A DNA stretch of 58,939 bases from an uncultured archaeon. Its GTDB lineage: Archaea; Aenigmatarchaeota; Aenigmatarchaeia; QMZP01; JACQNV01. How positions within the stretch are numbered: the stretch's first letter is position 1; every line of letters begins with the position of its first letter. Positions 128 through 55,555 of the stretch are shown here, piece after piece. Both the position numbers and the translations under genes were made by a program. Under the pieces are notes generated by a model that worked only from the letters and a program-made list of their open reading frames with translations, made no database searches and was not told where the DNA came from. The stretch spans positions 1-58,939 of the forward strand of contig CAYYYJ010000002.1 in the NCBI GenBank assembly GCA_964476045.1. The letters run 5' to 3'.

Positions 128-321
128 CGCCGAGGACAGGAATTGAACCTGCGCTCCCCGAAGGGAATCCGCTGACTAGGGACAAAGCTGATCTTCAGAT
201 CAACTTCAACCTTTCCGTTTCTCATACAAGACTAAACCTCGTCATTTCCGCCTACTTCCGAGTCAAGCCAATTTATTCACAGAAACTCAAGGCGGACGCA
301 TTACCGCTCTGCCACCTCGGC
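128..321 (-). tRNA. tRNA-Ser(UGA), class II, with ~112-nt intron (174..285) after position 37
   Basis: Sense GCCGAGG-TG-GCA..TGC-G-TCCGC-CTTGAG[intron]A-GCGGA-TTCCCTTCGGGGAGC-GCAGG-TTCAATT-CCTGT-CCTCGGC-G; acceptor, anticodon and T stems all pair. Confidence 0.8.
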
Positions 322-3708: not shown

Positions 3709-3972
3709 ATGACGACCAAAACTATTACAATAACAGAAGATGCATACGATGCCCTTAAAGGTTCAAAGGATATGGATGAAAGCTTTAGCAAAGCAATCCT
3801 CCGTATAACCCATAAAAAATCCCTGAAAGAGTTTGTCGGCGTCTTGTCAGAGAAGAGCGGGGACAAGCTTGAAGAGGCTATAAAGGAAATGAGGAGAAGC
3901 CGGGCAGAATCCAGAGAAAAGAGAATTGTGAGAATTTCAGGCCAGCTTAAAGGCAAATATGGCAGTTCTTGA
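3709..3972 (+). CDS. VapB-type antitoxin (small DNA-binding protein)
   Basis: 87 aa ORF overlapping the start of the downstream PIN gene; N-terminus KTITITEDAYDALK is typical of archaeal VapB-like antitoxins. Confidence 0.55.
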   Translation: MTTKTITITEDAYDALKGSKDMDESFSKAILRITHKKSLKEFVGVLSEKSGDKLEEAIKEMRRSRAESREKRIVRISGQLKGKYGSS

Positions 3973-4342
3973 AACTTCTTTTTTGATCGATATCCTTAGA
4001 GGCAGAAAACAGGCTGTAGACCTGCTTAACGAGCTTGAAGAAAGGGAACCGCTCTTCATAACAACTCCGACTATCATGGAATTATGGGAAGGTGCGTTGA
4101 GATCCCAGCTCCCGGAGAAAGAGATGAAAAAGACAGGAGATATGTTAGTAGCGCTCCATATCCTGGACTTTGATGCCAAGGCAGCTAAAAAAGCTGCTGA
4201 AATAAATTACGAGCTTTTACATTCACCGATAGAGGCTGAAGATTCCATGATAGCTTCAATCGCTTTTGTGCATAATGAAGTCCTTGTCACAAAGGACGAG
4301 CATTTTGTTCGTATCAGCGGCCTGAAGATACTGAAATACTGA
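3959..4342 (+). CDS. vapC: PIN-domain toxin (VapC-like)
   Basis: 127 aa; N-terminal LETSFLIDILRG, later acidic residues; 14-nt overlap with the upstream antitoxin ORF. Confidence 0.75.
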   Translation: MAVLETSFLIDILRGRKQAVDLLNELEEREPLFITTPTIMELWEGALRSQLPEKEMKKTGDMLVALHILDFDAKAAKKAAEINYELLHSPIEAEDSMIASIAFVHNEVLVTKDEHFVRISGLKILKY

Positions 4343-5710: not shown

Positions 5711-6420
5711 TCACTTCCCAAACTTCTTCTCCTGCTCTTTATACCACTTCATTATCTTGTCAAATTCTTTTTTAGTGAATTCAGGCCAGAGCGTATCTGT
5801 AAAATAAAGTTCTGCATAACTTGCCTGGTAGAGCATGAAGTTGGAAAGCCTGTGTTGCCCTCCTGTCCTTATAACAAGGTCTAAAGGTTCTTTAACCATC
5901 AAGAAATTATCGATACTCTGTATCGGTTTTCCAACAACTTTTTTCACTGCATTATTTAGTTCCAGTTTGGATCCATAAGCTAGCATTATGTTCAGTATAT
6001 TTTTCGAGTAGTGTTTTGTAGATTTAACGACCTCTTTCGCAGCTTCCTTGAGGTCTGGCCTCCACAAACTAGAGTCTCCAAGAATCCTTATTTTTATCCC
6101 CCTTTCTTTTATTACAGGATCTGTCACAATATTTTTTAATTCACTGGTGTAAATCTTCCAAAGTTCGTCCAATTCCTCTTTCGACCTTTTTAAATTCTCT
6201 GTTGAAAGTGCGTATATAGAAATCCTTTTAATTTCGGGATAGTCTTTACACCAATCCAAGAATTCCCTGGTTCTCTGCGCCCCTAAAATATGTCCTGCCC
6301 AAGGATCGCTGCCTGTAACTTTTGCAAATCTCCGGTTCCCATCAGGTTAACCCTAATCTCAGAATGCTGAAATTATATAAGCCCTAGATGGATACCTTTT
6401 TTAGACTGATTTTCAAACAT
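5711..6420 (-). CDS. uppS: cis-prenyltransferase (UPP-synthase family) with reading frame interrupted by a 29-nt insert
   Basis: Downstream frame reads PDGNRRFAKVTGSDPWAGHILGAQ...; upstream ATG 6420 gives MFENQSKKGIHLGLI then TAA. Removing 6347..6375 yields ...IHLGLIPDGNRRFA..., the family consensus. Confidence 0.7.
6347..6375 (-). other. 29-nt hairpin insert in uppS (candidate mini-intron or disruptive insertion)
   Basis: Sense TAATTTCAGCATTCTGAGATTAGGGTTAA; nt 1-22 form a 9-bp hairpin; contains TAA and shifts the frame. Confidence 0.6.
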
Positions 6421-6523
6421 ACCCGTATAAAATAAAAGAACCTGTATATATAACTATTACCCAGGTTAGATTAAGAAGTAGAAGCGAAATATCCAAAATT
6501 TTCTATATGCCTTTCGGGGAAAA

Positions 6524-7506: not shown

Positions 7507-7869
7507 TTAATCCGTATTCTTCTGTATCCAGTCCTGAACACTGAATATATTCTTTTTACCTTCAGCTACATCATTTATATATTCACCAGCTTGCTTTATA
7601 TCCTTTAAGCATAGTTTTTTTCCGTTTTCCCTCAAAAAGGTGTCTGCAGCTTCCAGAGCTGTTCTTTTATTCCCATCTACAAAAGTATGTGATGTTATTA
7701 TCTCATAAAGTAGCATAGCAGCTTTGTTGTAAATATCTGTTTTTGAGTTCTCAATTTTATTCACTATGAATTCTAAATTGCTCCTATCAACTATCCCACT
7801 TTCACCGCCAAATTCTTTAATTAGTTTATCGTGTATTTCAATCACTTCTTCTATTGTTAGATATTTCAT
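7507..7869 (-). CDS. doc: Doc/Fic-family toxin
   Basis: HTFVDGNKRTAL = Doc-type HxFxDGNKR motif; 120 aa. Confidence 0.85.
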   Translation of the reverse strand: MKYLTIEEVIEIHDKLIKEFGGESGIVDRSNLEFIVNKIENSKTDIYNKAAMLLYEIITSHTFVDGNKRTALEAADTFLRENGKKLCLKDIKQAGEYINDVAEGKKNIFSVQDWIQKNTD

Positions 7870-9463: not shown

Positions 9464-9528
9464 ACCGAGTATTAGTTCCTGTATATTAAATGATAACAAT
9501 AAATAATCTACAATCAAATCCCCATCTT

Positions 9529-19937: not shown

Positions 19938-20808
19938 TTAAATGCTTTTTGCGATCAGCCTGTAATATCCGAATTTACCTTCCAGGTAAAGCCGGATAGT
20001 GAATAAAATGTCTTTTTTCAGATCGTCAGCCATTTTCTTGCCATATTCTGGGAATAAATTTTCTATTTTCGGCCTGAAATCCCTTTCAAAAACAGGTTCG
20101 AAATGCCTAGGCATAAGCTCCCTACCCACATTACTGACGTCTTCTATTTTTGTAATTTCAAAACCAGCCCCAGCCACAAATCTCTTATACTTTTCTATGG
20201 TACCAAAAGACGGGTTTTGCCACGTCTGCCTCAATTCTAAATGCTCTTCGTCTGCGATTTTCTCTGTAATTGTCCAGTCGTCAAAAGCCAAGACCCCCCC
20301 CCCGTCTTAGCACTCTACGGAAGCCTTTCAAAGCTTCTTCTTTATCTGGTAAATGATAAAACATGTTCATTGTCCAGACAACGTCAAAACAATTATCTTC
20401 AAATTGCAAATTTCCGGCATCATGAACAGAAAAGTCAACAAGATGATCCAGACGCATCCGTTTTGTCAATCGCCTTGCTGTTATTGTCTGGAGCTCACTG
20501 ATATTGATGCCATGTATCCGGCATCCGTACCTCTTAGCCAAATAGCGCGCAGGCCCGCCAATCCCGCAACCAACATCCAAAACATAATGACTGCCTTTTA
20601 TCTCAGCCAGCTCAGCGAGCCTTTTGGTTGATTCTATTGCACCGGCTCTCCATAAGCTTCCGGTTTTCCAGATGTTCTCATCATATACCATTGGCGGATG
20701 AAGGTGGTCTCCTGACAACAATCCAATCAGACCTCCGCCAGGCAATCCATATGCATGGCCAACTCTGTCGCTATCGTAGTATTTTGCTGCCACAGATTCG
20801 TCAATCAT
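19938..20808 (-). pseudogene. class I SAM-dependent methyltransferase split by a frameshift in a G10 run
   Basis: VLDVGCGIGGPARYL motif I in ORF 20281..20808; ORF 19938..20291 continues the fold. One fewer G at 20294..20303 fuses the two ORFs. Confidence 0.75.
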
Positions 20809-22643: not shown

Positions 22644-22762
22644 CGCCATCACCCGGACTCGAACCGGGATATCCCGTCTTCTGAGAAATTGGAATGCTCA
22701 ATTTCAGTATGTGAAGGAAACAGGCTTTCCAGGCCTGCGCAGTACCATTGTGCCATGATGGC
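22644..22762 (-). tRNA. tRNA-Ser(GGA), class II, with ~37-nt intron in the variable arm
   Basis: Sense GCCATCA-TG-GCA..TGC-G-CAGGC-CTGGAAA-GCCTG-[52-nt variable region]-CCCGG-TTCGAGT-CCGGG-TGATGGC-G; the variable region is about 35 nt too long. Confidence 0.7.
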
Positions 22763-24824: not shown

Positions 24825-25241
24825 TTACAAAAGCTTTAGAAATTCATCTGCTTTCACTATTTTTGTTAGGTGGAATTCTTTGAGGTTCAACAAGTGTGGA
24901 TCTCCTGTAACTATGTAGTCTGCTTTAGCTGTTACAGCACACTCTATTATTTTATTATCGTCTGGATCGTCTCTAACAGCCTGAATCGTGTTTGCCGGTT
25001 TGACAACTTTTGCATATTCCAAAATTAAAGCTATCTGACTTTCAATAAAATCGTGGTCTTCAAGAAAATCCCTTTTCAAGACCCTTTCCAACTCTTCCAA
25101 TATTTGTGGTGATGTGAAAACCTGTATTTTTCCATCTATAGCAAGCTCCACTATCTGGTGAGGTTTGCCCAGCCAGAAGACAGAGGAAACATAAATGTTG
25201 GTGTCCAAAACAACCCTAAGCTTTTCGTTTTCTTCCTTCAC
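24825..25241 (-). CDS. PIN-domain toxin
   Basis: VVLDTNIYVSSVFW...; paralogue of 31290..31691. Confidence 0.8.
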   Translation of the reverse strand: MKEENEKLRVVLDTNIYVSSVFWLGKPHQIVELAIDGKIQVFTSPQILEELERVLKRDFLEDHDFIESQIALILEYAKVVKPANTIQAVRDDPDDNKIIECAVTAKADYIVTGDPHLLNLKEFHLTKIVKADEFLKLL

Positions 25242-26964: not shown

Positions 26965-28452
26965 ATGGAAAAAGTTGATACAATATTAGTGACAGGTGTA
27001 TTGGGTTCGGGTAAAACAACAACAATTAATAGGCTAATTAGTGATTTGGATTCTAGGGGAAAAAGACTATACGGGCTTGTTAATGATATAGGGGCTTTGA
27101 ATGTCGATGCAGAAAGGATAATGCTTCCAGAAGACAGGATTGCAGGATATTCAAGCGGTTGTGTCTGTTGCGAACGCCGTGAAGACCTGCAAAAATCTTT
27201 AGCCTCTTTAGACCAAACAAATGTTGATATGCTTTTGGTTGAACCAAGCGGGGCAGCAAACCCAATTGACATTGTTGAGACGTTGATAGATGATGAAAGG
27301 ATAAACTTGAAACATGTAGTGACACTTATTCCTGTGAGACATTTTGATTCTGTAAGATCTAAAAGTTCCTTCCTTGGAGGCTTAAGTACAGCTAGTGTTG
27401 TCGGGTACACTTGGCCTACAGATCCAGAAGAGCGAAGAAAAGTTGATTCTTTTTTATCAGATCAGGGTGTGACACAGCAAAGGATTGTGGTAGATGAAAA
27501 TTTTGGATATGATTCATTGGAGAATTTGGTGGGTTGGTCAATTGAAGGATTTATTGGAGAAGAGCATGACCATCATCATGGGCATGAGCATTACAAGACA
27601 GTTATTAGGACAATAAACCCTGCGGCTAGCAGAGAAGAAGTTATTGCGGTTTTGGAAAGATTGGCAAATCACGGGATTTCTAGGGCAAAGGGTTTTGTGC
27701 CTCACTTGCATATTTCATTTGATATAGTTGGAAACAGTTTAGCAATATCCGATGGTAGGGGCAGAGGCTCTATGGCATATGCTGTTCTTATTGATGAAGG
27801 CGAACTTCCAGTTGATTTGATAGAACCTATAACAGCCCCCAGGGAAGGCGCTTTTTTTGCCGATAACGCAACTCCGCAATCAAGATTGGCAACTTTCCAT
27901 TATTATTATAGTAGATCTGCTGGTACAAGACCTGATGCTGGCGGCATTGTCCAATCCAATTTTGAAGCCCCAGACGAAGCATACATTGCAGCAAAACAAA
28001 TAGCGCTTCAAGATCGTGACACAAATCCTTTGAGGCTTGCTCTGGCCCCCTATATTGATATAAGGTTAGGGGGACTGAGGGCTTTACAAAAAAGCGCCCA
28101 ACAAAATAAAAATTATGTTGGAGTAATGTTAGGGTCTTTTGCGATACAAATGCTTGGAGAATGGGACAAAATACCATTTCAAAGCCTTGCTGATTCAAGG
28201 CAATTGGAAAAAATAAAAAAAGAAGCGGTTCCCCAATTTTTTGACTATTTGAAAGCTTTCGGTGACAAAGATATGGAACCAATAAGGGGGAAAGACGGTG
28301 ATCCTTACAGCTGCTATTTTGTAAAAATGGCAAGGCAAGCTAGTCAATATGCCAAACCTGAAGATGTGCAAACGGCTGCACGTAATATGACAGGCGTTTA
28401 TAGGAGAAATGGGAAAGAGGAAATAGTAAATATGTGGAGGCAACTAACATGA
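26965..28452 (+). CDS. COG0523-family G3E GTPase (metal chaperone-like) with long C-terminal extension
   Basis: GVLGSGKTT P-loop, GCVCCE (CxCC), His-rich EEHDHHHGHEH; about 250 extra C-terminal residues of unknown fold. Confidence 0.85.
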   Translation: MEKVDTILVTGVLGSGKTTTINRLISDLDSRGKRLYGLVNDIGALNVDAERIMLPEDRIAGYSSGCVCCERREDLQKSLASLDQTNVDMLLVEPSGAANPIDIVETLIDDERINLKHVVTLIPVRHFDSVRSKSSFLGGLSTASVVGYTWPTDPEERRKVDSFLSDQGVTQQRIVVDENFGYDSLENLVGWSIEGFIGEEHDHHHGHEHYKTVIRTINPAASREEVIAVLERLANHGISRAKGFVPHLHISFDIVGNSLAISDGRGRGSMAYAVLIDEGELPVDLIEPITAPREGAFFADNATPQSRLATFHYYYSRSAGTRPDAGGIVQSNFEAPDEAYIAAKQIALQDRDTNPLRLALAPYIDIRLGGLRALQKSAQQNKNYVGVMLGSFAIQMLGEWDKIPFQSLADSRQLEKIKKEAVPQFFDYLKAFGDKDMEPIRGKDGDPYSCYFVKMARQASQYAKPEDVQTAARNMTGVYRRNGKEEIVNMWRQLT

Positions 28453-29327
28453 ACTATAAGGCAATTGTTGTTGTGACAGGCGTGGGTTTGGGAGAAGCTA
28501 AGATGATTTTCAAACAACCTGACCCTGCCGACCTAGTAGAACTTAAAGGAAAGATGTGTAAAATGAACTCGCCTGCAGGCGCTTCTGTAGAATTAAATAA
28601 AGCCGGTTATTTGGTTTATATGCTTGGGGATTGCCTCGATTGCATGGAAACTGTTGGAAAAAACTTCATGAAAAGCGAATACTATTATGAAAAAGTGGAT
28701 CTGCTCAACAAAGAGGAGGTAAATAAAGTTTGCCAGGAAATAGCTGAACTTAAACAAAAAACTAATTTGAATGTTCATCTTGTCCATTATGGGGGAATGT
28801 CAGGAGTAGCATCTAAAGTTAAACTACCAAAAGAAACTGTTGCTTTAGATCCTTGGGAGATACCGCCAAATTCAGTTGGGCCTTTCGTTGAAGCAAATAG
28901 CGGATCGCTTCTCAGTATTCTACAGGCAATGAAAGAAATTTTCAGAAAACAGAAAAAATCTAAGATTGTAATCATTTCCGCAATCAGTGCTATAAGGACT
29001 AAAAGATTGCATACCTTAGATGCTCTTCAAAAATCCGCAATCCACGCTATGGCAAGAAGCATGGCATTGGATCTTACGAAAGAAGGAATATATATTACAG
29101 AGATAATGCCCGGCATCACTGATACAGGATTCTACGATAATCCAACAACGTTTGAGGCTATGAAATTGGCATCAGAAGAACTTGGATATAAGTATACAGA
29201 AGAAACATTCCCTGTTTTCAAATCTCAAAGGGTGGGACAGGCTGTAGTTTTTGCAATAGATATAGATGCGCATGTAAGAGAAATTTCCTTGATGCCTTAT
29301 GGACAATATCCGCATTTGGGGGCTTAA
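28449..29327 (+). CDS. divergent short-chain dehydrogenase/reductase-like protein
   Basis: VVVTGVGLGEA Rossmann motif; ATGA overlap with the upstream stop; the expected YxxxK reads DALQK. Confidence 0.55.
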   Translation: MNYKAIVVVTGVGLGEAKMIFKQPDPADLVELKGKMCKMNSPAGASVELNKAGYLVYMLGDCLDCMETVGKNFMKSEYYYEKVDLLNKEEVNKVCQEIAELKQKTNLNVHLVHYGGMSGVASKVKLPKETVALDPWEIPPNSVGPFVEANSGSLLSILQAMKEIFRKQKKSKIVIISAISAIRTKRLHTLDALQKSAIHAMARSMALDLTKEGIYITEIMPGITDTGFYDNPTTFEAMKLASEELGYKYTEETFPVFKSQRVGQAVVFAIDIDAHVREISLMPYGQYPHLGA

Positions 29328-31289: not shown

Positions 31290-31691
31290 TTACAGAAGCT
31301 TTAGAAATTTGTCTGGCGTCAAATTTTTTATCCCTTGAAACTCTTTCATGTCTGTAAGATCAGGATCGCCGATAACAATATAATTAGCACCTCCATCAAC
31401 AGCTGTTTCAATTATCTTGTTATCTGTTGGGTCTCTTACAACATTAAGCGTGCTGACCTTTTGTACAATGTGGTAATCATTGAAAATGGTTTCTATAAGC
31501 TTTGAAAGCTGGTCTTGAGGAAAGCCAAATTTGTTTATCAGTTTTGTCAAAAATTCTTCCAGAATTTCTTTTGAAGTGATTAAAGCATATTCTCCATTTA
31601 ATCCTCTATTAATCACTTCGTGTGGTTTGCCTCTCCAGAAAACTGAAGAGATTAGGACGTTTGTATCTGGGACAATTCTGATCTCTGGCAT
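31290..31691 (-). CDS. PIN-domain toxin (paralogue of 24825..25241)
   Basis: IVPDTNVLISSVFWRGKPH...KFLKLL. Confidence 0.8.
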   Translation of the reverse strand: MPEIRIVPDTNVLISSVFWRGKPHEVINRGLNGEYALITSKEILEEFLTKLINKFGFPQDQLSKLIETIFNDYHIVQKVSTLNVVRDPTDNKIIETAVDGGANYIVIGDPDLTDMKEFQGIKNLTPDKFLKLL

Positions 31692-32964: not shown

Positions 32965-33061
32965 ATGATATTTAATTTATTTAACAGTTTATAAGCTTTC
33001 AGGAGCGTGTTTTTCAATGCTTTCCCCTTCTTATACATTTCCATCAAAAAACTCTGAAAGC

Positions 33062-33145
33062 CGTAGACCGAAGACTTTGTAGGGAACTGCTTATTCCTGT
33101 TCTATTGGTTAGGTCATGTGTCCTGAGTTCTGGGTCTTGAAGACC
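33062..33145 (+). repeat. repeat Y (matches 25565..25643), lies in the trailer of tRNA-Lys
   Basis: CCGAAGACTTTGTAGGGAACTGCTTATTCCTGTTCTATTGGTTAGGTCATGTGTCCTGAGTTCTGGGTCTTGAA. Confidence 0.75.
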
Positions 33146-33193
33146 GTAGACTGAAGACTCAGGACTTCGGAGAGAACTGCATTTGGTATGAAG

Positions 33194-33510
33194 CGGGCCC
33201 GGTGGGATTTTCAGTCTTGAGTCCTGAGTTTTGAGTATTGTTATTGACCCAACTGTATTTGTATTGTAGTTTTCTTGGATACGGTAGCCTTCTTCTAAAA
33301 GAAGGCTAGCATTTGAACCCACGACCTTCCAGGTTTTCGCTTTTCAGCAAATCACTATCCGGTATCTTCTATCAGCCGAGTTGCACATTTTCTATCATCG
33401 CAGATTTCTGTCTGCTAAATATGCTTTTAACGACATCGTTTTGAAATAAGCAATGCCTATATCAAACAATATTAAAAGCCGGGTGCTCTACCAGGCTGAG
33501 CTACGAGCCC
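33194..33510 (-). tRNA. tRNA-Lys(UUU) with two introns: anticodon-loop (33335..33472, ~138 nt) and T-loop (33207..33310, ~104 nt)
   Basis: Exons GGGCTCG-TA-GCTC..GAGC-A-CCCGG-CTTTTA / A-CCTGG-AAGGTC-GTGGG-TTCAAAT / CCCAC-CGGGCCC-G. Acceptor and T stems pair only when all three pieces are joined; one C-U mismatch in the anticodon stem. Confidence 0.65.
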
Positions 33511-33570
33511 TTTAATTTGAGATTATTGTCTCTGAGTTTATTTAAATAGTAGAAATCAATTAAACAAGAT

Positions 33571-33744
33571 GCCCAGGTTGTGTAGCGGCCTAGCATAGAG
33601 CCCTGTCATGTAAGCTTTTGTCACAAAAGCTTAAGCAAAAAAGGAGCCTAAAATTCTTTCGCTTCGGCTCAGAATTTTTACGGCTTCCACGGAAAAGGCT
33701 TATACGGATCGGCTCTGACCCGGGTTCAAATCCCGGCCTGGGCG
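33571..33744 (+). tRNA. tRNA-Asp(GUC) with ~101-nt intron (33609..33709)
   Basis: GCCCAGG...GAGCC-CTGTCA[intron]C-GGCTC-TGAC-CCGGG-TTCAAAT-CCCGG-CCTGGGC-G. Confidence 0.85.
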
Positions 33745-33778
33745 CCTGTTTTTTAAAATTAACCCTCTTTGAGTAAAT

Positions 33779-34078
33779 CTACTCCCCAAAAATAGCGCCA
33801 AAGCCTGCTTGGGCAGATTCGTCCTGCTTTTGTATAATTTCTAGAATTTTATCTTTGTCGTTTCCTGTAAGCTCTTTCGTTAAATCTTTTAGAAGTTTTT
33901 TTGCTTCTTCCACAGCTTCTTCTGAGCAGTCCATCTCCAGATAGTAGCCTGTCTCTTTCAACCCAAGAGAACCAGCCTCCCTGAAATTGATTGACTGCCT
34001 TGCCAACAGGTCGTTTTTTAGAACAATATCACTGGCCTTCTGGTACTTGTCTTTTTCGAGATAAAATAATAGTTTCAT
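33779..34078 (-). CDS. hypothetical protein with ribosomal-stalk-like C-terminal tail
   Basis: 99 aa ending QDESAQAGFGAIFGE, resembling the archaeal P1/aL12 C-terminal ...AGLGALFG peptide. Confidence 0.45.
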   Translation of the reverse strand: MKLLFYLEKDKYQKASDIVLKNDLLARQSINFREAGSLGLKETGYYLEMDCSEEAVEEAKKLLKDLTKELTGNDKDKILEIIQKQDESAQAGFGAIFGE

Positions 34079-34470: not shown

Positions 34471-35865
34471 TTATGTTAAATCTTCCTCCAGATATTTTTT
34501 TACTGTATCCAATAAATCCTGGTCTCCTGTTTTTAATACCTGGTTTGGGCCTAAAACTTTAAATCCTTTGCTCATGGAATCGGCCATGTGGGTAGCGAGC
34601 CCCTTTGCTTTCAGCACCTTTGAAGAAGCAGATAGTGTGTGGACAAGTTTCTTATCAGCTTTCCTGAAAATTCTAGACACTTCAGCAACCCACCTGTCCT
34701 CTTCAACCCAGACCCTGCCAATTTTCCTGTACTTTTCCACAAAGTCCTGCGAATTTTTTATTGCGAAAACAGGAGGCCCAACGACTCTCCTTATATTTGG
34801 GAGGCTCCCATTCTCAACTTCTAATAAAACAATGCACGTTTTCTCGTCTGTCCACACAAACTGTCCTATACATACAAATTCATATTCTTTCAAGATTTCA
34901 ACCAGCCTTTTAGAAGTTTTTCTGAGCTGCGGATATATTATATCGTCTACAATAGCAGGTCTCTTGAATCTTACTGCCAAAAATAACGTTCCTCTTGATT
35001 TTATTTTTCTCAGAAGCTCGGATGGTTTTATTTTTATTTCTTTTTTCTGGAAGTATGTTTCAGATGGCTTGTCCAAAAATTCCTGGACGAGATTCACGAA
35101 TTTTACAAAAACAGCAGGCGAAAGCGCTGCCGCCACATTCCTTTTCGGATCAACAGGATCTATAACAACAAGAGGCTGCCCCCTAAACTCTTGTTTAGTT
35201 CCAGAATATCTCCCTTCCAAATCGATAAACACCTGGCCAGGAATCCAATTAGACGTCTCTTTTAAAAGTGTTTTGAAGTCATCGTATTTTACAATCAGAA
35301 GTTCGCAGAGATATCCGGAAAGCCCTTGGGTTTTCAGGTCAGAACCATAAAGCCCATTCCTCTTGCAAAAAGTTTTGAGCAGTCTGGCCTCATTCGACTG
35401 GTGTGGATGGAGTTTTTTTGACAGGTATTGGTTGTGGAATGGGGTGCGATCTACAGCGGAAATTATTTTCTCAGCAGATTCAACTTTGTAGCAAGGGACA
35501 ATATCCACATCATACCCTTTGATTTTTGATCTCACATAAGGGTGCTCTGCATAAGCTATTTCAAAAAATCCCTTGAACGATCTCACAATCCTCTTGCCTA
35601 ATTCCAGTCCTTTCTTCTCTAAATCTTCGCGCCCAACATCAACAGGAAATTGTATGAAAATATCGAACTCTTTTTTGTGGGAAAGCCAAGTGTTTCTTGT
35701 AAAGGAGCCTGCGAGCACAACAGACAGTCCGAGGGGTTTTATTATTCTTTCTGTCTCAGCAAGCACATCTTCGATCACAGCGTGGACAGCATTCTTCTCC
35801 TGTTCAGAAGGGACTATCTTTTTGAGTATAGATTCGAGAATTAAATCGAGGTTTTTTTGAGTCAT
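34471..35865 (-). CDS. cca: archaeal class I CCA-adding tRNA nucleotidyltransferase
   Basis: 464 aa; LAGSFTRNTWL...FDIFIQF NTase core, archaeal CCA domain order. Confidence 0.9.
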   Translation of the reverse strand: MTQKNLDLILESILKKIVPSEQEKNAVHAVIEDVLAETERIIKPLGLSVVLAGSFTRNTWLSHKKEFDIFIQFPVDVGREDLEKKGLELGKRIVRSFKGFFEIAYAEHPYVRSKIKGYDVDIVPCYKVESAEKIISAVDRTPFHNQYLSKKLHPHQSNEARLLKTFCKRNGLYGSDLKTQGLSGYLCELLIVKYDDFKTLLKETSNWIPGQVFIDLEGRYSGTKQEFRGQPLVVIDPVDPKRNVAAALSPAVFVKFVNLVQEFLDKPSETYFQKKEIKIKPSELLRKIKSRGTLFLAVRFKRPAIVDDIIYPQLRKTSKRLVEILKEYEFVCIGQFVWTDEKTCIVLLEVENGSLPNIRRVVGPPVFAIKNSQDFVEKYRKIGRVWVEEDRWVAEVSRIFRKADKKLVHTLSASSKVLKAKGLATHMADSMSKGFKVLGPNQVLKTGDQDLLDTVKKYLEEDLT

Positions 35866-37952: not shown

Positions 37953-38513
37953 TCATCCTAAAGTAAACGTTTTAATTGGAGTATACACCGGCCCGATTCC
38001 TGTCAAACTGCTTTGGAAAAGTTTAATCTCTTCCACCCGCATCTCTCCAATATAGATCTTCTCCAACTCTTTTAATTTATCCAATAGTTTCTTTCTGTCA
38101 GTAACAATCCCAACCCTCGCAAAAGTCAGATGCGGGCGGGGGTCATAATCTTCCTTTCTGAAATCCTCCAATTTCTCATTCAACGCATTTTCGAGATGTA
38201 TTATCTGGTCCTTTCCCTGATTAACTTCTAAAAAGACCACTGTTATATAGGACGGATTATTGAAAAAAGATAATCCAGAAACAGAAATATTGAAAGGATC
38301 TGTTAACTTAGAAGCAGATTTTATACGTTCGGCTAGTTCAGTAACACTGTTATCTGAAACCTCTCCAAGAAATTTCAGTGTAAAATGAAAATTTTTCCTC
38401 TCAACTATCTTCAAGTCAGCAAATCCTCCAGCTTCGCCCAAAAACCTTTTCTGAAATTGCAAAACTTTTTCTTTCAGTTGTTCATCCAAATCTATCGCAA
38501 CAAACAATCTCAT
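37953..38513 (-). CDS. 2'-5' RNA ligase / 2H phosphoesterase (LigT/ThpR)
   Basis: Two HxT motifs: HFTLKFLG and HLTFARV. Confidence 0.8.
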   Translation of the reverse strand: MRLFVAIDLDEQLKEKVLQFQKRFLGEAGGFADLKIVERKNFHFTLKFLGEVSDNSVTELAERIKSASKLTDPFNISVSGLSFFNNPSYITVVFLEVNQGKDQIIHLENALNEKLEDFRKEDYDPRPHLTFARVGIVTDRKKLLDKLKELEKIYIGEMRVEEIKLFQSSLTGIGPVYTPIKTFTLG

Positions 38514-51854: not shown

Positions 51855-52394
51855 ATGTTACAAAAAAGTAGTATGGATAAGATCCTGGAGGTTTTTTTCA
51901 TCAACCCAACAAAACCCCACTATTTAATTGATATCAGCAGGAAAATACAGTTGGCTCACACGTCGGTGAAAAGGGATCTTGACAATCTGGTCAATCTGGG
52001 AATTATCACGGAATCCATAGAGAAAAGGGGGAAAAGAAAATTCCCTGTTTATAAATCCAACCTTAATAGTAAGTTATTTAAAAAATACAAAATCATGTAC
52101 AATTTTAATTCTATTCTCGAATCTAAGATTGCGGAATTTATATGGGAGAAGCTTGCCCCTAAATCGATTGTGCTTTTTGGAAGTTATTCAAGAGGCGAAG
52201 ACATAGAGGACAGTGACATAGACATCTTTGTCGAATGTAAAAAAGACAATATGGACCTTAAATCCTTTGAAAAAAAACTCGGCAGGAAAATAGAGCTGCA
52301 TTTCAATGAAAGCTTCAGATCATACAGCAAGGAGCTAAAAAACAATATTATCAATGGAATTGTAATAAGCGGATTCTTGGAGGGCTTTAAATGA
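51855..52394 (+). CDS. wHTH + minimal nucleotidyltransferase (MNT) protein
   Basis: LFGSYSRGEDIEDSDIDIFV NTase motif; 4-nt overlap with the downstream HEPN gene. Confidence 0.75.
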   Translation: MLQKSSMDKILEVFFINPTKPHYLIDISRKIQLAHTSVKRDLDNLVNLGIITESIEKRGKRKFPVYKSNLNSKLFKKYKIMYNFNSILESKIAEFIWEKLAPKSIVLFGSYSRGEDIEDSDIDIFVECKKDNMDLKSFEKKLGRKIELHFNESFRSYSKELKNNIINGIVISGFLEGFK

Positions 52395-52807
52395 TTATAA
52401 ACATAAGGCCAGATAAAGAAAAAGCTGCTGCCCTAAAGAAAATGGCAGCGATAACAATGGAGAGGCTGGGAAAAACAGATGCAGAAAAATATCCCAGCAA
52501 CACACTCGTGGATTATTATGATATCATCCATAAACTAATGGAAGCCCTTACCTTGCGTGAAGGAATTAAGATAAAAGGCGAAGGCGCGCATCAGGAACTT
52601 ATAGATTTTCTTGCCAAGAACAAAGTTTTTGATGAGCAGTCAAGAGCCTTTCTGCAGCAAATGAGGGACATCAGAAACCAAATATCCTATGAGGGTTTCA
52701 TGGTGCATAACAACTATGTTACTCTGAATATGAAACAGATAAAATCTGTTATTAGCCTCCTGTTTGGCAGGCTCGAAAAAGAAAAGCCTGTTGAGCCCAA
52801 CAAATAA
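52391..52807 (+). CDS. HEPN-domain protein (partner of the MNT)
   Basis: Helical 138-aa protein, MRDIRNQISYEG region, operonic with the MNT. Confidence 0.6.
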   Translation: MIINIRPDKEKAAALKKMAAITMERLGKTDAEKYPSNTLVDYYDIIHKLMEALTLREGIKIKGEGAHQELIDFLAKNKVFDEQSRAFLQQMRDIRNQISYEGFMVHNNYVTLNMKQIKSVISLLFGRLEKEKPVEPNK

Positions 52808-54405: not shown

Positions 54406-54945
54406 TCACTGACTTATCAGCTCATCTATCCTGTTTACAAAATCAGAGGCGTCTTTGCGTATTTCCTCAGCCTCTTCCCTAGTCAAAGATATGTCAACAA
54501 AGTATTGCGCCATTATCCTTCTCCTTTTAGCTGCCCTTATTTTTGAGACATATAGTTCCTCAAGGTTTCTTGCTCTTTTCAGGCTATCCATATACTTTTC
54601 TTCAAGCTCCCCTTTATGCACAAAGTTATGCCATAAGGCAAGTATTGTTGCTTTATGACTATCACTTTTAATTTCAATGCTAGCCAAAGCCGCCATGGCA
54701 GCATGGTACATTGAATAGTAAGATATGACAATAACCCAATCATAGCCTTCATATGCTTCGCTTATTTTCAGAAGTTTCTTTGCATCCCTTTCCTCTGAAA
54801 GGTTCCATAGAGCTGCAGCTGTCTCGAGATTGTGCCTGGCTTTATACATGAAATTTCCTGTAAGCCGTTTTATGCCCCCTGTTTTTGTCAATAAGCCTTT
54901 TCTCTCAAATTTTCTTATTTGGGCCTCTGCTTTTCTTATATCCAT
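54406..54945 (-). CDS. HEPN-domain protein
   Basis: 179-aa helical protein starting 1 nt after the upstream MNT gene. Confidence 0.6.
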   Translation of the reverse strand: MDIRKAEAQIRKFERKGLLTKTGGIKRLTGNFMYKARHNLETAAALWNLSEERDAKKLLKISEAYEGYDWVIVISYYSMYHAAMAALASIEIKSDSHKATILALWHNFVHKGELEEKYMDSLKRARNLEELYVSKIRAAKRRRIMAQYFVDISLTREEAEEIRKDASDFVNRIDELISQ

Positions 54946-54946
54946 T

Positions 54947-55555
54947 TCAGACCTCGCTTAACAATTCCCAGAAATGCTCAAAGCCGTGCAGTATTATTTT
55001 GTCTATAATGGCTTCTCTCACCACGTTCTGGTCTTTTGAGCCTGCCATTTTTTTAAACATTTCCTGATCAACAATCACAGGGTTTATTGCCTTTCCGTAC
55101 CTTGTTTCAAGTGTATTTAATTCTTCATGGACTGCCTCATCTTCCTTTTTCGACATTATAATCAGCAGATCAATGTCGCTTGCCTTTTTTTCCCTGCCTT
55201 TTGCATAGCTCCCGAACAGGACTATGGAATAAAGTGTTTTTGTTTTTTGTCCGAGCCTCTGGACAGCCTCTTCAAGCATTTTGGACAAAACCTTGTTTTT
55301 TGACAGGAATGCGTCTGTCTTTTTTTGGGAAGCAAGGGAGAGCAGAAGCCTGGCTTTCCTGTTTTCAATGTTTATCGAACAGATTGTAGACCTTCCAACT
55401 TTTTTGCTTATCAAGACATTTTCTTGTATCATCTTCTGGACATTTTTATAGAGGTAGCTGTATGTCAGCCCAAGATTTCTAGCCATCTCATTCATTGAGA
55501 TCCCCTTTTCATGGTCCTTTTCATATACCCCTATTATTTTCAGTTCAGTCTCCAT
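54947..55555 (-). CDS. wHTH + minimal nucleotidyltransferase (MNT) protein
   Basis: LFGSYAKGREKKASDIDLLII NTase motif; N-terminal wHTH. Confidence 0.75.
   Translation of the reverse strand: METELKIIGVYEKDHEKGISMNEMARNLGLTYSYLYKNVQKMIQENVLISKKVGRSTICSINIENRKARLLLSLASQKKTDAFLSKNKVLSKMLEEAVQRLGQKTKTLYSIVLFGSYAKGREKKASDIDLLIIMSKKEDEAVHEELNTLETRYGKAINPVIVDQEMFKKMAGSKDQNVVREAIIDKIILHGFEHFWELLSEV

Follow-up and report, generated by a model that had tools for sequence, protein, structure and literature searches.

A candidate bulge-helix-bulge mini-intron in the uppS gene of an aenigmarchaeon and its counterparts in related genomes

The interrupted uppS gene

The window, that is, the whole stretch of 58,939 nucleotides analyzed here, has a G+C content of about 39% and contains a set of archaeal marker genes, namely those for TBP, aIF2-beta, the RFC small subunit, ThrRS with the archaeal editing domain, ribosomal protein S15, and the CCA-adding enzyme. 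The best matches of its proteins come from metagenome-assembled Aenigmarchaeota (DPANN). On the minus strand of the window, the cis-prenyltransferase gene uppS, an essential gene for a lipid-carrier synthase, is split by 29 nt that cannot be read through, leaving an exon 1 of 15 codons and an exon 2 of 211 codons (Table 1); in this respect the sequence is as described in an earlier note on this DNA. The frame that opens with the ATG at 6420 encodes MFENQSKKGIHLGLI and then runs into TAA. The frame of PDGNRRFAK... is closed on its 5' side by TAG and TAA, and its product, PDGNRRFAKVTGSDPWAGH..., continues to the stop codon at 5713..5711. The third frame ends in TGA; hence no single frameshift gets through the insert. 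The database protein for this locus, P0009, is a 182-aa fragment with a TTG start.

Removal of the 29 nt, either as 6375..6347 or, to the same effect, as 6376..6348, yields a protein of 226 aa with the segment ...HLGLIPDGNRR..., a full cis-prenyltransferase, in agreement with the rejoining proposed in the note. The rejoined product matches the Pfam family Prenyltransf (PF01255) over positions 1-219 of 219 (E 4e-60) and is 80-89% identical to the uninterrupted relatives P0001-P0008, which read ...KGIHLGLIPDGNRRFAK.... The consensus of uninterrupted relatives at the break is ...KGIH[LI]G[LI]IPDGNRRFAK..., and the exon 1 peptide ...KGIHLGLI corresponds to their N-termini. Residues 11-225 of the spliced UppS align to residues 20-244 of the E. 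coli UPPS (1jp3). By the offset of this alignment, D17 of the spliced protein is equivalent to E. coli D26, and the break falls between the equivalents of E. coli I24 and M25, one codon ahead of the Asp of the DGNRR/DGNGR motif. This Asp (E. coli D26) is needed for catalysis in cis-prenyltransferases.

The TATA-like box upstream of exon 1, which is found as the same AGTTATATATAGG box ahead of the intact gene in the closest relative (L167), suggests a promoter and a uppS transcript that would be leaderless or carry a very short leader.

Table 1. Features of the uppS locus and intron-containing tRNA genes in the window. Helices, bulges and cleavage positions are predicted; an arrow marks a cut.
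Feature	Position	Strand	Remarks
TATA-like box TTATATATA	6445..6453	-	About 29 nt 5' of the uppS start codon; read from sequence
uppS exon 1	6377..6420	-	44 nt, MFENQSKKGIHLGL plus bases 1-2 of the Ile codon (AU)
Outer helix h, 5' strand (UCCAUC-U-AGG), exon 1	6383..6392	-	Pairs with 6346..6338 in the MFE and BHB folds
Central helix H, 5' strand (GCUU)	6379..6382	-	Final Gly base and Leu codon; 4/4 with GGGU 6353..6350
Bulge 1 (A U↓A)	6376..6378	-	Predicted 5' cleavage 6377/6376; canonical BHB register
Putative 29-nt intron, BHB register, AUAAUUUCAGCAUUCUGAGAUUAGGGUUA	6348..6376	-	Same spliced product as 6347..6375
Inner helix h', 9-bp hairpin UAAUUUCAG-CAUU-CUGAGAUUA	6354..6375	-	Abuts H; -6.2 kcal/mol folded alone
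Central helix H, 3' strand (GGGU)	6350..6353	-	Intron positions -6 to -3
Bulge 2 (U A↓A)	6347..6349	-	Predicted 3' cleavage 6348/6347
Outer helix h, 3' strand (CCUGAUGGG)	6338..6346	-	Exon 2 Pro-Asp-Gly codons
uppS exon 2	5711..6347	-	Last Ile base, PDGNRRFAK...KKFGK, stop
tRNA-Ser(UGA)	128-321		112-nt intron at 37/38
tRNA-Ser(GGA)	22644-22762		35-nt variable-arm BHB intron

RNA fold of the insert

A substrate of the tRNA-splicing endonuclease EndA has a central helix H of 4 bp with a 3-nt bulge 3' of each strand, and it is cut after the second base of each bulge. This geometry, known from Marck and Grosjean in 2003, derives from the canonical tRNA intron at 37/38. A region of 91 nt around the insert is more stable than its shuffles (z = -3.1, with none of 200 shuffles as good), and the 9-bp hairpin formed by UAAUUUCAG and CUGAGAUUA, as claimed earlier, is present in the minimum free energy (MFE) fold. 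The relaxed pairing of the flanks, UUA with UAA, that had been proposed around the hairpin gave way to a canonical bulge-helix-bulge (BHB) structure with H = GCUU/GGGU, the bulges AU↓A and UA↓A, and a register shifted by 1 nt in the 5' direction. A BHB built on UUA/UAA, with cuts at C30↓U31 and G59↓G60 in the numbering of the folded segment, would likewise excise 29 nt, yet its product would retain an in-frame UAA, and this pairing is disfavored by the comparative data, which point to GCUU/GGGU. Thus, the splice sites of the earlier note give the right product at slightly different positions: the predicted cleavage lies 1 nt further 5', and the spliced product is the same in both registers because an A stands on each side.

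In the window, all four pairs of H can form if G.U pairs are counted, with 3-nt bulges on opposite strands. H is flanked by two stacked helices: h, in which UCCAUC.AGG pairs with CCUGAUGGG over 9 bp with one bulge, and h', the 9-bp hairpin. The BHB conformation has a predicted energy of -24.6 kcal/mol vs. -25.8 kcal/mol for the MFE fold, a gap of 1.2 kcal/mol. No other H in the family is as weak as that of the window, in which three of the four pairs are G.U and one is C-G, and it is because of these G.U pairs that the MFE fold draws a 7x7 internal loop in its place. Given the weak H and the MFE preference, folding energies indicate that the window's own copy of uppS could splice poorly.

A search of Rfam with positions 6250-6520 gave no family match, only noise. 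The heptamer AGCATTC, once seen as a link between the hairpin tip and the tRNA-Ser intron, occurs 10 times in the window vs. 11.6 expected, and the coincidence is attributable to chance.

Inserts at the same site in relatives

Comparison of uppS in related genomes, a check suggested together with the intron, revealed similar inserts at the identical Ile-Pro junction in scattered Aenigmarchaeota. The database contains several proteins with odd N-termini that start just ahead of PDGNRR, such as MKLQSKPDGNRR, MSTPDGNRR, MACAKSKPDGNRR, and MAARQSRPDGNRR. We obtained the DNA for proteins with odd N-termini and, in addition, scanned species-representative genomes and metagenomes. The DNA behind such proteins contains a normal exon 1 (ATG ... 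H-I-G-L-I), a short insert, and then CCN GAT GG.... At least six database proteins are mis-called through the intron (P0009, P0017, P0019, P0033, P0053, and P0063).

Altogether, eight distinct inserts are observed at this site (site 1), one in the window and seven others, with the common junction AU↓A-CCN. Their lengths are 17 nt (L168), 19 nt (L102), 20 nt (L006), 22 nt (L001, L002, and L003, identical in three independent assemblies), 25 nt (L004), 29 nt (the window), 30 nt (L025 and L027, identical in two species), and 32 nt (L005). In seven of the eight the length is not a multiple of 3, and the 30-nt insert contains four in-frame stops. The inserts are dissimilar apart from a conserved H' tetramer near the 3' end. 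About 42 other distinct uppS sequences from Aenigmarchaeota, including the closest relatives of the window, lack an insert. Every carrier retains the start codon and the conserved peptide of exon 1, and this conservation is understandable only if the two exons become joined.

These observations bear on the possibility that the insert is an artefact of assembly or sequencing and is absent from the real genome. The contig is of the metagenome type, and at least one other gene of the window, for a methyltransferase, is broken by a frameshift at a G10 run; this frameshift is gene damage or a sequence error, so one or the other does occur in the assembly, and in a homopolymer of this kind a misread is possible. 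The 29 nt, however, are complex sequence with no homopolymer. At least 10 further contigs, produced by different projects and assemblers, have analogous inserts at this very nucleotide, and the identity of the 22-nt insert in three independent assemblies means that the inserts are not assembly noise. The probability of an artefact is practically negligible.

Shared geometry, covariation, and selection

All eight site-1 inserts fit a single canonical hBHBh' register, with four of four pairs in H, 3-nt bulges, and an adjoining h'. The helix h has at least 4 bp in all site-1 introns except that of L005 (2 bp); it begins with GG/CC and then runs into CCAU/AUGG. H is formed by exon GCUU or GCUC and intron positions -6 to -3, with the intron consensus RRGY against exon GCUY: exon GCUU is paired with AAGC, AAGU, GAGC, or GGGU (the last in the window), and exon GCUC with GAGC or GAGU. 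Eight of nine site-1 loci (seven of the eight distinct inserts) have AU↓A as bulge 1, L168 being the exception with AU↓U; bulge 2 follows the pattern NN↓N. In the BHB register, the Ile codon of L004 becomes AUU. Within 10 nt on either side, no alternative register combines four of four pairs in H with an h of at least 3 bp. Shuffled introns equal the observed fit in 0.1-1.6% of trials each, a significance that is overstated, the carriers being not fully independent.

Because the hairpins vary in length, a fixed-length mini-alignment was built that takes 18 nt from exon 1, 4 bases from the start and 9 from the end of the intron, and 12 nt from exon 2. In this alignment 94.4% of cells are paired, compared to 26-56% when the partners are slid. 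Five pairs demonstrate double changes; in H, U-A is replaced by C-G, and the third pair of h alternates between A-U and C-G, with four loci each. Across loci h is 95% paired, with A-U/C-G covariation. The covariation score of 0.319, as against 0.184 in shuffles, was reached by none of 500 shuffles, with the carriers treated as independent.

On the exon side, h and H consist of codons, and hence a functional structure should constrain synonymous sites only in intron carriers. The motif GGGCTYAT is present in 9 of 9 carriers and in 3 of 42 intron-less genes (Fisher p = 7e-8, overstated since the carriers are not fully independent). At the level of single codons, Gly is encoded by GGG in 9/9 carriers vs. 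16/42 intron-less genes, Asp by GAT in 9/9 vs. 17/42, and His by CAT in 8/9 vs. 17/42. A further example is provided by L025 and L027: their exons 2 share 82% nucleotide identity (61% at third positions), whereas the 30-nt intron is 100% identical, unlike a neutral insert. The double changes, the constrained synonymous sites, and the identical 30-nt intron all point to a structure kept by selection.

A second putative intron site

Two other loci, L034 and L035, from a more basal group of Aenigmarchaeota, contain inserts of 23 and 13 nt, respectively, at a site 11 nt downstream of site 1, inside ...PDG↓NRR... (site 2). Site 1 is intact in both. The sole BHB-compatible register at site 2 has H = ACGG/CCGG (three of four pairs) and cuts at GGN A↓AC. 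For h, L034 has CCUG/CAGG and L035 has CCGG/CCGG, a compensatory change. In L034, excision between the flanking repeats would lead to DGDRR, and only the cuts predicted from the BHB would give the invariant DGNRR. The predicted restoration of this Asn is an independent check on the BHB model. In L035, with its intron of 13 nt, h' is missing and the structure is similar to a bulge-helix-loop. Taken over both sites, the predicted cuts restore ...HLGLIPDGNRR... in 10 of 10 intron variants.

The full set of inserts allows us to consider two scenarios that do not involve EndA. The first is translational recoding of the unspliced mRNA, either by bypassing of the T4 gene 60 type or by two frameshifts. 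The window does have a stop codon right after the last codon of exon 1 together with the start of a hairpin, which superficially resembles the take-off site of gene 60. Bypassing requires matching take-off and landing codons, but the take-off AUA matches the landing triplet in only one of the eight variants (UAA, AAA, ACU, AAA, AGA, CUA, AAA, and AUA before CCN). Besides, the gaps vary from 13 to 32 nt and contain stops in all frames, and it is the helix-bulge geometry that is conserved and covaries, not the codons. We know of no case of ribosomal bypassing in Archaea, and recoding appears highly improbable.

The second scenario is removal of the insert at the RNA level by a self-cleaving element or by some other nuclease-ligase pair. 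Group I and group II self-splicing introns have a ribozyme core of hundreds of nucleotides, and inserts of 13-32 nt are far too small to belong to either class. Rfam yields no match in the region, and what is conserved is precisely the set of features by which EndA substrates are defined. Such a route is extremely improbable.

Splicing machinery and other candidates in the window

Pfam scans identified no EndA or RtcB genes within the 59-kb window. To our knowledge, EndA is universal in Archaea. This universality and the two intron-containing tRNA genes of the window (Table 1) imply that both EndA and RtcB are probably encoded in the genome: an organism with two such tRNAs must possess an endonuclease and a ligase for BHB motifs beyond the anticodon loop. 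In particular, the variable-arm intron of tRNA-Ser(GGA), with H = CUUC/GAAG (four of four pairs), indicates a working splicing system at non-anticodon positions. A canonical BHB is cleavable by any type of EndA.

The tRNA introns of the window are missed by strict BHB criteria; they were recovered by allowing at least three of four pairs in H, combined with an ARAGORN check. ARAGORN alone overlooks both intron-containing tRNA genes. A scan of the entire window for BHB motifs, coupled with an ORF-merging filter for further interrupted genes, produced 4256 motif matches and 604 ORF merges, essentially noise. Three candidates from the window were rejected as introns: 9489-9510 joins a spurious antisense ORF to a HAD hydrolase gene, 28395-28471 joins two separate genes (cobW-like and SDR), and 20288-20333 is actually a 1-nt frameshift in the G10 run of the methyltransferase gene, at 20294-20303.

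Proposed mechanism

Most probably (with a probability of roughly 0.88), the 29-nt insert is a BHB intron of the uppS pre-mRNA. The idea of a mini-intron for the archaeal splicing endonuclease, first put forward from the window alone, is now supported by the inserts in relatives, their common hBHBh' geometry, the covariation, and the synonymous constraint specific to carriers. Directly visible in the compared sequences are the anatomy of the element, the way it is conserved and covaries in relatives, and the restoration of the reading frame of the gene. From these we infer cleavage, ligation, and the enzymes responsible.

The following mechanism can be proposed. In the pre-mRNA, UCCAUC.AGG of exon 1 would pair with CCUGAUGGG of exon 2 to form the outer helix h, and GCUU at the end of exon 1 would pair with GGGU of the intron to form the 4-bp central helix H. 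The 9-bp hairpin of the intron would serve as h', so that the two 3-nt bulges, AU↓A and UA↓A, remain on opposite strands. EndA would then cut after base 2 of each bulge, and an RtcB-type ligase would join ...GGGCUUAU to ACCUGAUGG.... The joined mRNA would have the Ile codon AUA restored and would encode the complete enzyme with its ...HLGLIPDGNRR... active-site segment. The predicted exon-exon junction is GGGCTTAT↓ACCTGATGG or, in a longer form, 5'-CCATCTAGGGCTTAT↓ACCTGATGGGAACCGGAG-3'.

The main worry for the window copy, because of its weak H helix, is that uppS is here a pseudogene disrupted by the 29-nt insertion, and at most carries a decaying descendant of an intron that was once spliced. 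A central helix weaker than in any other member of the family would fit such decay, as would the frameshift in another gene of the window. DPANN genomes are reduced, and these organisms may rely on their hosts for lipids, which also counts for a dispensable uppS. A decaying gene, however, is hard to reconcile with an exon 1 that keeps its ATG and KGIHLGLI and an exon 2 that is open for 211 codons, with 89% identity to the nearest relative. The TATA-like box is retained, as in L167. Moreover, the insert resides at the same nucleotide as seven others and keeps every element of the BHB, and a related intron (that of L025 and L027) appears to be under purifying selection. We consider loss of the gene to be very unlikely and retain the spliced BHB intron as the preferred explanation.

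Distribution and evolutionary history

A quick neighbor-joining tree was constructed from exon-2 proteins, that is, from a single protein. The intron carriers are scattered on this tree, mostly next to intron-less sisters: L167 and L007 for the window, L037 for L001, L009 for L004, and L029 for L034. In one case, that of L006 and L168, both sisters bear an intron. The intron ends are alike in neighboring hosts. Thus, the introns of L001 and L005 end with AAAGCAA, those of the window and L025 start with AUAAUU, and those of L006 and L168 share GAGC. Our tentative explanation, and the most likely one, is that the uppS intron is an old element of the Aenigmarchaeota clade, inherited vertically and precisely lost many times, as proposed for cbf5. 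Another scenario that may apply to the scattered carriers is repeated gain of introns, instead of one old gain followed by losses.

Beyond the individual locus, one may ask how general such introns are. It is possible, although rather doubtful at this stage, that in DPANN the stretch of uppS encoding HIGLIPDGNRR is a landing pad repeatedly used by BHB introns (two sites and at least ten variants), that selection keeps these introns, with EndA splicing gating the supply of the polyprenyl carrier for envelope glycosylation, and that BHB introns in DPANN protein genes are far more common than cbf5 alone would suggest. If common, they would be hidden, because gene callers produce truncated ORFs such as MKLQSKPDGNRR....

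If the BHB reading is correct, mRNA splicing by EndA would extend to a metabolic enzyme and to the DPANN superphylum. The uppS introns would then form a natural series of mRNA introns of 13-32 nt with covariation, ready substrates for studies of EndA specificity, and a case of gain and loss dynamics at two adjacent sites. They would also be an example of intron-bearing genes truncated by automatic annotation. Finally, the intron would constrain the choice of exon codons, a rare RNA-processing signal in the synonymous sites of a prokaryotic gene.

Comparison with known systems

According to papers from 2020 (PMC7714728) and 2023, cbf5 of Crenarchaeota contains the only BHB intron in an archaeal coding sequence and HVO_1309 the only one in a UTR, and more probably exist. 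In a literature search with incomplete coverage of subscription journals, no paper emerged that connects BHB introns with uppS or undecaprenyl synthase, or that describes protein-gene introns in DPANN or Aenigmarchaeota. With uppS, to judge from its sequence features, the archaeal protein-coding gene families known to depend on tRNA-type splicing would number just two.

The closest known case is the pre-mRNA intron of the pseudouridine synthase gene cbf5 in Crenarchaeota (Watanabe 2002; Yoshinari 2006; Yokobori 2009, PMC2738675). In both genes, a short intron in the coding sequence has a BHB-type structure formed by exon and intron, and its removal is required for a functional enzyme. The cbf5 intron disrupts a catalytic codon, and in uppS one site precedes the catalytic Asp by one codon and the other interrupts the Asn codon. 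The distribution of both introns is patchy, which for cbf5 is explained by lineage-specific loss. Four differences can be noted: (i) uppS encodes a cis-prenyltransferase and its carriers are DPANN Aenigmarchaeota, whereas the hosts of the cbf5 intron belong to TACK; (ii) the uppS motif is a canonical hBHBh', whereas that of cbf5 is more relaxed according to the 2023 review; (iii) uppS has two intron sites 11 nt apart; and (iv) splicing of cbf5 has been shown experimentally, whereas that of uppS is predicted from sequence and comparative evidence. The uppS element is not a homolog of the cbf5 intron, since its host gene is uppS (PF01255) of Aenigmarchaeota and not cbf5 of Desulfurococcales or Sulfolobales; the mechanism would be analogous.

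The 5' UTR of HVO_1309 in Haloferax volcanii contains a 46-nt BHB intron. Its processing by the tRNA-splicing endonuclease was confirmed with circRNA-seq and with cleavage in vitro (Schwarz et al. 2020, PMC7714728). As in uppS, an mRNA contains a BHB motif and a short intron. The HVO_1309 intron differs in its location in the 5' UTR, where it leaves the reading frame uninterrupted, and in its occurrence in Halobacteria.

Introns at non-canonical positions of archaeal tRNAs were reportedly described by Marck and Grosjean in 2003. Such introns, including the 35-nt intron of tRNA-Ser(GGA) in the window, have the same hBHBh' geometry and size range as those of uppS, and the enzymes are presumably the same. 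In uppS, by contrast, the host RNA is an mRNA, splicing would set the reading frame, and the exon halves of the helices are codons, which limits the synonymous sites.

A more distant parallel is the splicing of eukaryotic HAC1/XBP1, where stem-loops of an mRNA are cut by a non-spliceosomal endonuclease and the exons are ligated by an RtcB-type enzyme or a tRNA ligase, with a change of reading frame as the outcome. A role of RtcB in XBP1 splicing is noted in PMC8718801. The HAC1/XBP1 system differs from the one proposed for uppS by its nuclease, Ire1, by another recognition motif, and by its role in a regulated stress response.

Other genes of the window

Two tRNA-Ser genes of the window are interrupted, and neither was called by ARAGORN. 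The tRNA-Ser(GGA) gene was found by Rfam; its intron (AUACUG...CAGAAGAC) can be folded into a bulge-helix-bulge (BHB) structure with the central helix CUUC/GAAG and the bulges ACA and ACG, each with the predicted cut after the C. In the tRNA-Ser(UGA) intron, the outer exon-exon helix has 6 bp, and three of the four positions of the central helix are paired. Another split gene encodes a class I SAM-methyltransferase. This gene is not interrupted by an intron; a 1-nt frameshift, located within ten consecutive G (G10, 20294-20303), divides it into two overlapping ORFs between ...RRVLRRGGG and VLAFDDW.... There are two explanations for it: a sequencing error in the homopolymer, or a real frameshift that is possibly phase-variable.

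The window also encodes two RNA-end-processing enzymes, a LigT-type protein and a CCA-adding enzyme, ~30 kb away from uppS. Toxin-antitoxin-type genes are numerous for a small genome. They encode three PIN-domain proteins, a Fic/Doc protein (its gene adjoins uppS and htpX) and two nucleotidyltransferases; of the latter genes, the one at 54950-55555 adjoins a HEPN-domain gene, and the one at 51855-52391 adjoins an ORF without a Pfam match. The ~730-nt region 33050-33780 contains only short, low-quality ORFs of 52-92 aa, and a search of this region against Rfam gave no match even at E <= 0.1; it may encode a non-coding RNA not described so far, or else consist of degraded genes.

Coordinates of the genes and introns (window positions unless an accession is given)
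Feature	Location	Strand	Details
tRNA-Ser(UGA)	128-321	minus	112-nt intron, canonical 37/38 position
tRNA-Ser(GGA)	22644-22762	minus	35-nt BHB intron in variable arm
Class I SAM-methyltransferase	20284-20808 and 19941-20291	minus	two overlapping ORFs
CCA-adding enzyme	34474-35865	minus
LigT-type 2',5'-RNA ligase / cyclic phosphodiesterase	37956-38513	minus
Toxin-antitoxin-type genes	3959-4339, 7510-7869, 24828-25241, 31293-31691, 51855-52804, 54409-55555
Second-site uppS intron, L034	JBHIDR010000003.1, L034:1020-1290		23-nt insert; GTDB Aenigmatarchaeota MAG
Second-site uppS intron, L035	JACQIB010000001.1, L035:1020-1290		13-nt insert; GTDB Aenigmatarchaeota MAG

Probable uppS introns in related genomes

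The uppS loci of two species, L025 (JACQNV010000008.1) and L027 (DATDTO010000099.1), share a 30-nt intron that is 100% identical; the nucleotide identity of exon 2 between them is 82%, and 61% at third positions. The length of this intron is a multiple of 3, yet it contains four in-frame stops. Public calls of intron-bearing uppS genes are truncated or begin at spurious intron codons (database proteins P0009, P0017, P0019, P0033, P0053, and P0063), one example of a miscalled N-terminus being MKLQSKPDGNRR. Such calls are a recognizable annotation signature for these introns.

The Aenigmatarchaeota locus L038 (WVZE01000003.1) contains two uppS-like genes ~760 nt apart, neither of them interrupted, with the D codons of the PDGNRR motifs at locus positions ~460 and ~1222. 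Thus, uppS copy number varies within the phylum.

A second intron site is observed in L034 and L035, where the insert lies within the Gly-Asn codons of the DGNRR motif, 11 nt downstream of the intron site in the window. The L035 insert has no inner helix and, to our knowledge, is among the shortest archaeal introns.
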